The position numbers and the translations under genes are program-made. The notes below the pieces were generated by a model. It saw only the letters and a program-made list of their open reading frames with translations, was not told the DNA's origin and made no database searches. From assembly GCF_003334765.1 (NCBI RefSeq), contig NZ_QOWT01000002.1: a stretch of 64,000 nucleotides of DNA. One strand, written 5' to 3'. Of this stretch, positions 6,951 through 48,322 are shown in pieces (positions within the stretch are counted from its first letter, which is position 1; each line of letters begins with the position of its first letter). The stretch comes from Escherichia coli. Lineage in GTDB: Bacteria > Pseudomonadota > Gammaproteobacteria > Enterobacterales > Enterobacteriaceae.

Positions 6951-7751
6951 TCACCACCAGGCGTGGAAGTGGTGAACCGGACCAATACCGTGACCAACTT
7001 CCAGCGTGTCGGCCTGGGCTAACGCCGATGAAAGCCAGCTTTTTGCCTCCTGTACGGTGTCAGCCCAGTTTGTATGGCGCGGGCGTAGTGCAGCCAACGC
7101 CGCAGAGAGTGTACAACCAGTGCCGTGGGTGTTTTTGGTCATAATGCGCGGTGCGGTAAACCGTTGTTCACCCTCGCGGGTAAACAGCCAGTCCGGGCTT
7201 TGCTCATCATCCAGATGACCACCTTTCATTAGCACTGCGCCACAGCCCATCGCCAACAGCGATCGCCCTTGTTCCAGCATTTCCTGTTCGGTGCGCGCGT
7301 GTGGCGCGTCGAGCAAGGCGGCAGCTTCGGGCAAGTTTGGCGTTATTAATGAAACCTGTGGCAATAATCGACTGCGCAGCGTAGCAACCGCCGAAGGTGA
7401 AAGCAGCGGGTCGCCGCTTTTTGCCAGCATAACGGTGTCGAGTACCACGTTTTGGATCTGATAACGTTGCAACCGTTCTGCCACCGCTTCAACAATATCG
7501 GTTTCCGCCAGCATACCGATTTTAGTGGTATCGATTCGCACATCGCTGAACACCGAATCGAGCTGGGCGGCGACAAAATCAGGCTCAATGCGATACACCG
7601 ACTGTACGCCACGGGTATTTTGCGCCACCAGTGCAGTAATAACTGAGCAACCATAAGCGCCAAGTGCCGAGAAGGTTTTAAGATCGGCCTGAATCCCCGC
7701 ACCACCACTCGGATCAGTACCGGCAATCGTCAGAGCGTTAATTCGTTTCAT
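6951..7751 (-). CDS. thiD: Hydroxymethylpyrimidine/phosphomethylpyrimidine kinase
   Basis: 266-aa ORF; [27 protein letters not shown]... recognised as ThiD; overlaps the thiM stop by 4 nt. Confidence 0.92.
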
Positions 7752-8536
7752 GCCTGCACCTCCTGCGTCAATTGCCAGAGCGCATCAAGGAAATGTGGAA
7801 CAAAACTGCCTGGTCCCTCGCTTCTGGCGACTGCGCGTTCTCCGGCTTGTTTCATCCAGTGACAGGCAGATGCGACATTTTCCAGCGTATCGCCTGGTAA
7901 CGCACAGCAGGCAGCGACAACCGCCGATAATGCACAGCCAGTTCCTACCACTTTGGTCATTAACGGATCACCACCGTGAATACCAATGATACGATGTCCA
8001 TCGGTAACATAATCCATCTCGCCAGTGACCACGACGATTGCGCCAGTTTCCCGTGCCAGTGTTTGTGCAGCGGGTATCGCGTTAGCTGCGGCGTCAGTGG
8101 TATCCACTCCCCGTCCGCCATTAGCAATGCCAGCTAATGCCATGATTTCCGAAGCATTACCACGTATCGCTGCCGGTTTAAAAGATAAAAGTTCATGACA
8201 AAAATGGCGGCGATAATCGAGCGCACCCACCGCTACTGGATCAAGCGTCCAGGGTGTTTGAGAGCTTTTTGCTTGCTCAACGGCAGCACGCATCGCCTGA
8301 GCGCGTGGCTGCGTCAGTGTGCCAACGTTAATCAACAAGGCACTGGCGATAGCCGCAAACTGACTGGCCTCTTCGGTTTCGATAACCATCGCTGGCGATG
8401 CACCGAGCGCCAGCAAGGTATTGGCGGTAAAGGTTTGCACCACATCATTGGTCATGCAGTGCACAAGAGGGGAATGTTGGTGAAAAAGGTGTAACGCGTG
8501 CGCAGATTGCGCTGAACCCAGCAGGTCGACTTGCAT
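7748..8536 (-). CDS. thiM: Hydroxyethylthiazole kinase
   Basis: 262-aa ORF ([33 protein letters not shown]...) recognised as ThiM; first gene of thiMD. Confidence 0.92.
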
Positions 8537-8544
8537 AGTTTGCT

Positions 8545-8680
8545 CCTGCCATAACGTGAAGAAGCAATGACCTGGTGGTCCGTGACTTCCCTACGCTGGC
8601 ATTATCCAGATCAGGTGATACGGGTATTTCTCAGCCTTCACGCAGAAGGGCACCCCGAGTCGTTTGGTTGCGATGATAAA
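8545..8680 (-). promoter_or_regulatory. TPP (thi-box) riboswitch in the thiM 5' leader
   Basis: Minus strand reads GGGGUGCCCUUCUGCGUGAAGGCUGAGAAAUACCCGUAUCACCUGAUCUGGAUAAUGCCAGCGUAGGGAAGUCACG, the classic E. coli thiM TPP aptamer with the CUGAGA core, immediately upstream of the thiM AUG. Confidence 0.88.
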
Positions 8681-8758
8681 TCGCAGAGGAGGATGGTAAT
8701 GTCCAGCGCACGCGTTGTAAACGAGGAAAAACGGCAGTTTTACAATCGCGTTAATAAA

Positions 8759-9031
8759 TTATTTGATATATGAATCCAGCACCTTCAGAACGACATCCAG
8801 ATCTTCTTCACGTTTTAGCTCATCCCCCTGGTGAACGATGTGTTCCGTCAGATGACCTTTAATCACTTCCCGCATCAGACCGTTTACCGCGCCACGGATA
8901 GCAGCAATCTGTTGTAAAACTGCAGCGCATTCGTGCGGCTCGTCGAGCATTTTCTTGAGCGCCACGACCTGGCCCTGAATCTTACTGGCACGCGCTTTCA
9001 GTTTCTGTTTATCACGGATTGTATGAGACAT
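8759..9031 (-). CDS. rcnR: Ni/Co-responsive transcriptional repressor (CsoR/RcnR family)
   Basis: 90-aa [50 protein letters not shown]...; divergent from rcnA. Confidence 0.9.
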
Positions 9032-9079
9032 GGCAACACCTGGTTAACAAGAATATGAAAAATCATAGCACTATTAATC

Positions 9080-9114
9080 TACTGGGGGGTAGTATCAGGT
9101 ACTGGGGGGGAGTA
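9080..9114. promoter_or_regulatory. Tandem RcnR operator sites (TACT-G6/7-N-AGTA) in the rcnR-rcnA divergent promoter region
   Basis: tactggggggtagta (9080-9094) and tactgggggggagta (9100-9114) seen directly; match the published RcnR recognition motif. Confidence 0.8.
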
Positions 9115-9151
9115 GAATCAGATTGCCGAATTAATACTAAGAATTATTATC

Positions 9152-9976
9152 ATGACCGAATTTACAACTCTTCTTCAGCAAGGAAACGCCTGGTTCTTCA
9201 TCCCCAGCGCCATCTTACTTGGTGCGCTTCATGGCCTGGAACCAGGGCACTCAAAAACGATGATGGCGGCGTTTATCATCGCCATCAAAGGCACCATTAA
9301 ACAAGCGGTGATGCTCGGACTGGCAGCAACTATTTCGCATACCGCAGTGGTCTGGTTAATTGCCTTTGGCGGGATGGTGATCAGCAAGCTCTTTACTGCT
9401 CAATCAGCAGAACCGTGGCTCCAGCTGATTTCCGCAGTGATCATTATTAGCACCGCGTTCTGGATGTTCTGGCGTACCTGGCGCGGCGAACGCAACTGGC
9501 TGGAGAATATGCACGGGCATGATTATGAGCATCATCATCACGATCACGAACATCACCACGACCATGGACATCATCACCATCACGAACATGGCGAGTATCA
9601 GGATGCCCATGCACGAGCCCATGCCAATGACATTAAACGACGCTTTGATGGTAGAGAGGTCACCAACTGGCAAATTTTGTTATTTGGCTTAACCGGTGGC
9701 CTTATCCCCTGCCCGGCAGCAATTACCGTGCTGTTGATATGCATTCAGTTGAAAGCCCTGACACTGGGCGCAACACTGGTCGTCAGTTTCAGCATTGGCC
9801 TGGCGTTAACGCTTGTCACCGTAGGCGTTGGCGCAGCAATCAGCGTTCAGCAGGTCGCAAAACGCTGGAGCGGATTTAACACTCTCGCTAAACGCGCCCC
9901 CTATTTTTCCAGTCTGTTGATTGGCTTAGTCGGTGTGTATATGGGCGTACATGGCTTCATGGGCATAATGCGATAA
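9152..9976 (+). CDS. rcnA: Nickel/cobalt efflux permease with histidine-rich cytoplasmic loop
   Basis: 274-aa ORF; multi-TM; His-rich segment HGHDYEHHHHDHEHHHDHGHHHHHEHGEY. Confidence 0.9.
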   Translation: MTEFTTLLQQGNAWFFIPSAILLGALHGLEPGHSKTMMAAFIIAIKGTIKQAVMLGLAATISHTAVVWLIAFGGMVISKLFTAQSAEPWLQLISAVIIISTAFWMFWRTWRGERNWLENMHGHDYEHHHHDHEHHHDHGHHHHHEHGEYQDAHARAHANDIKRRFDGREVTNWQILLFGLTGGLIPCPAAITVLLICIQLKALTLGATLVVSFSIGLALTLVTVGVGAAISVQQVAKRWSGFNTLAKRAPYFSSLLIGLVGVYMGVHGFMGIMR

Positions 9977-27523: not shown

Positions 27524-27692
27524 TATACTCTAAATAATTCAAATTGGTCCGATCCGGCGCAACGTCCCAATGGCCTGGATTATAAATCTCATTATCTTAA
27601 TTGCAACGGGGTCCAGCCGTGGTTATAATTCGTTCGTTGGAACACGATGTTGCACAGGCTGCGGTGTTGGGCCTGAAAATAGTAAATAAAAG

Positions 27693-27719
27693 AACCTGCC
27701 TCACCAGCAGGTTTTTTTA
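27693..27719 (+). terminator. Intrinsic terminator after yehK
   Basis: CCTGC-ctcacca-GCAGG stem followed by TTTTTTT. Confidence 0.6.
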
Positions 27720-27829
27720 TTTACTGTGATCTGCTTTCCAGATATTTTCCGCTCAAACAACTAATGCGCCAAACATTTATTGCGCGTAAAATATCGTTTA
27801 TTTCATTAATACATTTCAGGGATGAATAT

Positions 27830-28918
27830 ATGTCACCGCAGAATAATCATCTGCAGCGTCCGCCTGCCGCTGTGTTATACGCCGATGAACTGGCAAAATT
27901 AAAACAAAATGATAACGCACCTTGCCCGCCCGGTTGGCAGTTAAGTTTGCCTGCGGCCCGTGCTTTTATCCTTGGCGATAGCGCGCAAAATATTAGCCGT
28001 AAAGTGGTGATTAGTCCCTCTGCTGTCGAACGTATGTTAGTCACTCTTGCCACCGGGCGCGGTTTGATGTTGGTGGGGGAACCTGGCACCGCAAAATCTC
28101 TCCTGTCTGAATTACTGGCAACCGCTATTAGCGGCGATGCCGGGTTAACCATCCAGGGCGGGGCATCTACCACCGAAGATCAAATCAAGTATGGCTGGAA
28201 CTACGCCCTGCTTATCAATCATGGTCCGTCAACGGAAGCGCTGGTCCCTGCCCCGCTTTATCAGGGAATGCGCGACGGCAAAATCGTCCGTTTTGAAGAG
28301 ATAACGCGTACACCGCTGGAAGTGCAAGACTGTCTGTTAGGTATGCTTTCTGACCGGGTTATGACGGTGCCGGAACTCACCAGTGAAGCCAGTCAGCTCT
28401 ATGCGCGAGAAGGCTTTAATATTATTGCCACTGCCAATACCCGCGATCGCGGCGTCAATGAGATGAGTGCCGCGCTAAAGCGTCGCTTCGATTTTGAAAC
28501 TGTCTTTCCGATTATGGATTTCGCCCAGGAGCTGGAACTGGTCGCCAGTGCTTCGGCGCGTTTGCTGGCCCATAGCGGTATTCCGCATAAAGTGCCTGAC
28601 GCGGTACTGGAGTTACTGGTCCGCACCTTCCGCGATCTGCGTGCCAACGGCGAAAAGAAAACGTCAATGGATACCCTGACGGCAATTATGTCCACCGCTG
28701 AAGCCGTGAACGTGGCCCACGCAGTGGGCGTCCGCGCCTGGTTTTTAGCGAATCGCGCAGGTGAGCCAGCCGACCTGGTGGACTGCATTGCCGGAACCAT
28801 CGTCAAAGATAATGAAGAAGATCGCGCTCGTCTGCGCCGTTACTTCGAACAGCGTGTCGCCACACATAAAGAAGCTCACTGGCAGGCTTATTATCAAGCC
28901 CGCCACCGCCTGCCGTGA
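27830..28918 (+). CDS. yehL: MoxR-like AAA+ ATPase
   Basis: ORF 27764..28918; start set at MSPQNNHLQRP (362 aa); Walker A GEPGTAKS; Walker B/sensor region RFEEITRTPLEVQDCLLGML. Confidence 0.88.
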   Translation: MSPQNNHLQRPPAAVLYADELAKLKQNDNAPCPPGWQLSLPAARAFILGDSAQNISRKVVISPSAVERMLVTLATGRGLMLVGEPGTAKSLLSELLATAISGDAGLTIQGGASTTEDQIKYGWNYALLINHGPSTEALVPAPLYQGMRDGKIVRFEEITRTPLEVQDCLLGMLSDRVMTVPELTSEASQLYAREGFNIIATANTRDRGVNEMSAALKRRFDFETVFPIMDFAQELELVASASARLLAHSGIPHKVPDAVLELLVRTFRDLRANGEKKTSMDTLTAIMSTAEAVNVAHAVGVRAWFLANRAGEPADLVDCIAGTIVKDNEEDRARLRRYFEQRVATHKEAHWQAYYQARHRLP

Positions 28919-48149: not shown

Positions 48150-48322
48150 GATGAGCATTCAGATAGTGGTTCACGCGCACGGGTTGCGCACCGCCGGAGT
48201 AAGGATTTACTGAGGCTAGCGACGCCATCATAACGAGCAAAAAGTGCGATCGTCAAAGGAGAATCGTGAGGAAATGCTGCATTGCTGACATTTACGCCAG
48301 CAATGCAACGTCAAAGAACTTT

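Follow-up and report, generated by a model that had tools for sequence, protein, structure and literature searches.

Between the stop codon of rcnR and the start codon of thiM, on the minus strand of the Escherichia coli stretch analyzed here (64,000 nucleotides, hereafter the window), lies a conserved noncoding interval, and what this interval does is the question addressed in this work. Is it the head of an independent thiMD transcript that carries a riboswitch, is it a structure that belongs to the rcnR transcript, or is there a small gene on the opposite strand? A sequence-only reading had given the first answer, locating the thiamine-pyrophosphate (TPP) riboswitch of thiM at 8545-8680, and had proposed a scan with the Rfam family RF00059 as the check. 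The thiM riboswitch is among the founding examples of riboswitches, and both structural and genetic studies of it exist.

Identification of a TPP aptamer upstream of thiM

All 4227 Rfam families were searched at their gathering thresholds over the whole window. The proposed check came out positive, since RF00059, the TPP riboswitch aptamer (THI element), matched 8571-8667 on the minus strand with 71.2 bits, above the curated threshold of 54.3 bits (E value, 5.1e-12). The alignment is full length, covering model positions 1-105 of 105, and is not truncated. The canonical thi-box that had been quoted from the letters, a 51-nt string, is indeed exact and unique, with a single copy in the window at 8586-8636 on the minus strand (0 mismatches), and was absent from 100 of 100 dinucleotide-preserving shuffles. 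Both CUGAGA (J3-2) and ACCUGAUCUGGAUAAUGCCAGCGUAGGGAA, which forms P4/P5, agree with the consensus letters in the RF00059 alignment, and every defining feature of the family that can be assessed computationally is present in the element.

In the RF00059 alignment, P1 (8658-8661/8584-8587) closes two arms, one composed of P2 (8652-8657/8621-8627) and P3 (8645-8651/8634-8639) and the other of P4 (8612-8615/8590-8593) and P5 (8606-8609/8596-8599). All of these helices are formed, with two nonstandard pairs flagged, one in P1 and one in P3, and the optional P3a of the Rfam consensus is deleted. For the aptamer alone, the Rfam structure has an energy of -13.9 kcal/mol, against -23.9 kcal/mol for the ligand-free minimum-free-energy (MFE) structure. 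Support for the aptamer structure comes from the Rfam model, because our own alignment, described below, is nearly invariant over the aptamer and offers no independent covariation for P1 to P5. TPP binding has been reported for thiM RNA of the same sequence, and crystal structures of the aptamer with TPP are cited in the same paper (PMC1920254).

The aptamer lies on the strand of thiM, and its 3' end is 34 nt upstream of the thiM start codon (AUG, 8534-8536). The downstream gene, at 7748-8536 on the minus strand, encodes the hydroxyethylthiazole kinase ThiM (262 amino acids [aa]; TIGR00694, 341 bits versus a cutoff of 256), and next comes thiD, at 6951-7751 on the minus strand, which encodes hydroxymethylpyrimidine/phosphomethylpyrimidine kinase (266 aa; TIGR00097, 363 bits versus a cutoff of 205). 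The thiD start codon and the thiM stop codon overlap in ATGA. The upstream neighbor, which is context outside the switch, is rcnR (8759-9031, minus strand; NF011613, 197 bits versus a cutoff of 138). Many E. coli chromosomes contain, at 100% identity, the 501 nt queried around the site, and in one of them the RefSeq annotation runs rcnR, "riboswitch: TPP riboswitch," thiM, thiD, and yegX.

The leader and its candidate promoter

The 5' end of the leader was inferred from the numbering of a published genetic study, which describes a start codon mutant, U152A, and a ribosome-binding-site mutant, G142C (PMC5499598). With the A of the AUG (nt 151) at 8536, nt 1 falls at 8686 and G142 at 8545, which is one G of the GGAG in the thiM Shine-Dalgarno (SD) sequence. 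The RNA 5' end mapped in this way reads CUGC, the same initiating tetranucleotide as was used for in vitro transcription in that study (PMC5499598). The thiM 5' leader would thus extend over 150 nt, 8537-8686 on the minus strand, with the aptamer and the expression platform both complete. A sigma-70-like promoter (TTTACA, a 17-nt spacer, and TACCAT; 9 of 12 positions matching the consensus) is found at 8693-8721 on the same strand, and the -10 hexamer of this candidate thiMD promoter ends 7 nt upstream of 8686. The range 8545-8680 given earlier was therefore close to the leader but slightly off at both sides, the leader running from about 8686 to 8537 and the lower bound of 8545 falling inside the SD AGGAG.

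The leader together with the start codon (8534-8686, 153 nt) is 100% identical to that of K-12 MG1655, the strain background of the published work on the thiM riboswitch. Taking together the Rfam match, thiM and thiD downstream, the RefSeq label, and the identity to K-12, we conclude, with a probability of about 0.97, that the minus-strand leader of the thiMD operon is the E. coli thiM TPP riboswitch. The two computational findings that could have overturned this identity, a lack of an Rfam match and a downstream gene other than thiM, were both looked for, the identity held, and nothing contradicts it. The riboswitch accounts for the conserved noncoding stretch between rcnR and thiM.

Two alternative folds of the expression platform

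The expression platform contains a hairpin, GACC-ACCA-GGUC (8569-8580, minus strand), which lies between the aptamer and the anti-SD and is predicted in both states of the leader. It is followed by the anti-SD tract UUGCUUCUU (8559-8567), with its core CUUCUU at 8559-8564, and by the thiM SD AGGAG (8543-8547), which ends 6 nt upstream of the AUG. In the unconstrained MFE fold of the leader, the 3' half of the aptamer, GCCAGCGUAGGGAAG (8586-8601), pairs with the anti-SD plus spacer, CUUCUUCACGUUAUGGC (8547-8564), which constitutes the 3' strand of the anti-sequestering helix of the TPP-free (ON) state; the free ensemble leaves the GGA core of the SD unpaired with a probability of about 0.65 to 0.7. 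When the aptamer pairs are enforced, the anti-SD tract pairs with the AGGAGCAA region (8540-8549), and the probability that the SD is unpaired is approximately 0. In silico, the two pairings of the anti-SD in E. coli, with the SD (OFF) or with the aptamer strand (ON), are mutually exclusive.

The ON duplex has an energy of -19.0 kcal/mol, against -9.2 kcal/mol for shuffled sequences. The stability of the unconstrained leader fold does not exceed that of shuffles (z score, -0.48), as expected for a bistable RNA, so that thermodynamics alone would miss the element and the pairing pattern is the informative result. This pattern can be compared with a chemically probed model (PMC1920254), nucleotide n of which corresponds to window position 8672-n. 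In that model, nt 71-86 (8586-8601) pair with nt 108-125 (8547-8564), and the SD is nt 126-129 (GGAG, 8543-8546); the anti-SD, nt 108-111, maps to CUUC (8561-8564), and nt 83-86 map to GAAG (8586-8589). At the level of single nucleotides, both states that we predict agree with the models given in that study for the TPP-free and the TPP-bound RNA (PMC1920254).

We therefore take the switch to work as follows. When TPP is low, the aptamer 3' half (8586-8601) would pair with the anti-SD and spacer (8547-8564), leaving the SD AGGAG (8543-8547) free and allowing translation of thiM, with thiD next in the operon. When TPP is high, the ligand would lock the P1-P5 aptamer fold (8571-8667) and release the anti-SD, and the freed tract at 8559-8567 would pair with the SD region and block translation initiation.

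Translational control and Rho-dependent termination

A switch of this class could also act mainly through premature termination at an intrinsic terminator rather than through translation initiation, a reading in keeping with the terminator/antiterminator platforms that are common among the TPP riboswitches of Firmicutes, as restated in PMC5499598, and with the drop in thiM mRNA levels observed with TPP (PMC5499598). However, no intrinsic-terminator-like site, that is, a hairpin followed by a U tract, was found in 8400-9200 on either strand, and the platform carries an anti-SD/SD pair instead of a terminator. Furthermore, a translational fusion containing six thiM codons is repressed by TPP, whereas transcriptional repression is not seen with six codons, and the mRNA drop requires Rho as well as thiM codons 20-34, being a consequence of translational repression (PMC5499598). 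We consider it highly improbable that intrinsic termination is the main mode of action, and we retain translation initiation as the step at which the thiM riboswitch acts.

The published work further provides the elements of a Rho-dependent step, which can be placed on the window. Transcriptional repression requires thiM codons 20-34, which map to 8435-8479 on the minus strand, and is abolished by bicyclomycin; the termination sites at nt 231, 237, and 262 map to 8456, 8450, and 8425, and the Rho-protected stretch, or rut probe, at nt 201-210 maps to 8477-8486 (PMC5499598). In our sequence, transcript nt 181-240 (8447-8506) contain 35 to 42% C and 10% G, and this C-rich, G-poor composition is consistent with a rut-like site. 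On the published model, this adds a second layer of control, in which the untranslated mRNA exposes this early stretch of thiM and Rho terminates transcription there (codons 20-34).

Conservation of thiM leaders in Enterobacterales

A scan of genome contigs with a degenerate thi-box pattern returned at least 120 loci, and among the matches listed, 36 have a ThiM homolog directly downstream. The comparison set was composed of 27 Enterobacterales leaders from the matches listed and of the window sequence, 28 in total. The aptamer is almost invariant across the 28 leaders, an invariance that is partly built in because the leaders were retrieved with a thi-box pattern, and other Enterobacterales show no conservation upstream of P1. 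The hairpin that follows the aptamer is predicted in all 28 leaders with stem sequences that differ by genus (GACC/GGUC, GACAC/GUGUC, GAUGCC/GGCAUC, and GGUGUC type), and the same hairpin made from different stems indicates compensatory change. As for the anti-SD, 27 of the 28 leaders contain CUUCU, versus 5.7% of composition-matched shuffled linkers, and all 28 contain CUUC, versus 23% of such linkers. In the aligned leaders, GGAG or GAGAG is found 7 to 13 nt ahead of the start codon.

Both duplexes, ON and OFF, scored better than shuffles in 8 of 28 leaders when a 14-nt anti-SD window was used, a window poorly suited to the ON test since it leaves out the spacer, which forms most of the ON helix. 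Repeating the ON test with the anti-SD plus spacer gave a clear signal, the duplex with the aptamer 3' half outperforming 95% or more of the shuffles in 23 of the 28 (mean z score, -2.55). Ten of the 28 leaders, namely, those of E. coli, E. albertii, Enterobacter type, and Pluralibacter, had an SD:anti-SD duplex with a z score below -2, and two-state folding of leaders cut at +15 shifted the unpaired probability of the SD by at least 0.3 in 2 of 28, those of E. coli and E. albertii. SD sequestration was not reproduced by these simple models in relatives from genera other than Escherichia, Enterobacter, and Pluralibacter. We tentatively attribute the weak OFF-state signal in relatives to the crude equilibrium model, the cut at +15, and the first-motif bookkeeping, and we do not count it against the mechanism.

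The leaders of Citrobacter, Pantoea, Erwinia, and Serratia keep CUUCU and the ON helix, and their SD:anti-SD duplex is no better than shuffles. Many of these leaders have CCGG in the 3' arm of the hairpin and GCCGG in the spacer, which makes an alternative helix possible. The architecture of the OFF state in these four genera may differ from that in E. coli.

The pattern scan also brought up loci of other kinds. Several Enterobacterales genomes contain, among the matches listed, a second thi-box locus with a short-P3a pattern and without thiM downstream; these loci are presumably thiC or thiB/tbpA riboswitches. Distant phyla (Phycisphaerales, Thermus, and Bacteroidota) contribute many further matches to the thi-box pattern.

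The antisense open reading frame

On the plus strand, a mechanical list of open reading frames (ORFs) contains a 68-aa frame with an ATG start at 8567-8773, which lies opposite the riboswitch and the 3' end of rcnR and against which the sequence-only reading had cautioned. If this frame encoded a real small protein, the likeness to a thi-box would be incidental or secondary, and such a reading could appeal, beyond the existence of the frame and its ATG, to the fact that the antisense frame is open over the aptamer core in 27 of 27 related loci examined. Yet this openness follows from the near invariance of the core and is uninformative, and the ends of the antisense frame are not conserved, its length in relatives varying from 39 to 173 codons. 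Variable positions gather in the loops and junctions of the RNA (L3 and J2-4) and not at every third base, and in 3 of the 28 leaders, L3 is longer by one inserted nucleotide, which would shift the frame. The frame also overlaps the 3' end of rcnR in antisense, matches no NCBIfam family, and carries no RefSeq (PGAP) annotation, and the RNA model accounts for the conservation. We assign this reading next to no probability and judge that the ORF is not a gene, in accordance with the earlier caution. Annotating 8537-8686 on the minus strand as the thiM TPP riboswitch leader keeps this antisense frame from being called a gene.

Relation to rcnR transcription

A different objection is that the element might be a structure in the 3' untranslated region of the rcnR transcript, or a gate for rcnR read-through, rather than the head of an independent thiMD transcript. 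The gene rcnR shares the strand of the element, with its end, at 8759, lying 92 nt before the aptamer, and we found no intrinsic-terminator-like hairpin in the interval from the rcnR stop codon to the thiM leader (8687-8758, minus strand). In contrast, the -10 hexamer of the candidate promoter at 8693-8721 lies 7 nt upstream of the published 5' end, the region upstream of P1 diverges in other Enterobacterales, and in each of the 28 leaders the aptamer, anti-SD, and SD keep their layout relative to the thiM start. Moreover, read-through would supplement the regulation of thiMD and not replace it. We regard this objection as very unlikely to hold and keep the reading of the element as the leader of an independent thiMD transcript.

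Some read-through from rcnR is nevertheless possible, because no intrinsic terminator is detectable between its stop codon and the thiM leader. Nickel/cobalt-responsive transcription of rcnR could then enter thiMD and be gated by the riboswitch, which we consider unlikely; a weaker possibility still is that Citrobacter, Pantoea, Serratia, and similar relatives achieve the OFF state without a simple CUUCU:GGAG duplex. If true, read-through from rcnR would link metal stress to thiamine salvage.

Other RNA elements in the window

The Rfam scan returned several matches at other places in the window. A full-length match to the antitoxin small RNA OrzO-P (RF02083; 101.3 bits versus a gathering threshold of 60) is located at 27643-27718 on the plus strand, just upstream of a 384-aa ORF (27764-28918, plus strand), and is the one copy at threshold in the 64-kb window. 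The strand opposite this match showed no obvious short, hydrophobic ORF for a ZorO-like toxin, and the match may be an orphan or a degenerate remnant of a zor-orz type I toxin-antitoxin system. A Peptidase-S11 RNA motif (RF03039; 72.8 bits versus a gathering threshold of 34.8) at 48154-48234 on the minus strand is a candidate cis-regulatory leader. Two naRNA4 matches (RF02564), at 59883-59960 and 646-716 on the minus strand, scored 88.3 and 64.5 bits, respectively; they are GC-rich double-hairpin repeats of the REP/BIME kind.

Distribution of the leader in E. coli

The leader was matched in 5425 of 5426 complete E. coli genomes, with 5338 of these matches extending over at least 80% of its length. 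The identity of the best match was at least 99% in 4354 genomes, 95 to 99% in 1034, and 90 to 95% in 37. In about 87 of the 5425 genomes, the best match covers less than 80% of the leader. In the record NZ_CM172609.1, for example, the leader match ends at query position 96 and has no annotated feature beneath it, and the same record contains a second place that matches. These cases suggest that the thiM leader is occasionally disrupted, perhaps by an insertion or by an assembly break.

Comparison with known TPP riboswitches

The thiM element and the TPP riboswitches of Firmicutes share the aptamer fold and the thi-box. They differ in the expression platform, which is of the terminator/antiterminator type in Firmicutes, whereas the thiM element has no intrinsic terminator and relies on SD sequestration followed by Rho-dependent termination. 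Likewise, the Rfam consensus includes P3a, which the thiM aptamer does not have. The lack of P3a and that of an intrinsic terminator are known properties of thiM.

Within E. coli, the thiC and thiB/tbpA riboswitches have in common with thiM the aptamer class, the ligand, and a component of translational control (PMC5234074 and PMC11487190). They differ from thiM in controlling other operons and in having other expression platforms. The thiC riboswitch is reported to combine control of transcription and of translation and to involve a regulatory pause where translation starts (PMC4841613 and PMC5234074).

The closest comparison is with the thiM riboswitch of E. coli K-12, the expression platform of which has been the subject of chemical probing (PMC1920254) and of genetic analysis (PMC5499598). 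From this riboswitch the present element has no detectable difference: the sequence is identical, the element is likewise flanked by rcnR and by thiM-thiD, and the SD, anti-SD, and anti-sequestering segments match by nucleotide. The thiM TPP riboswitch described here is thus one that is already known, carried here by a different strain of E. coli, and it brings no new biology.
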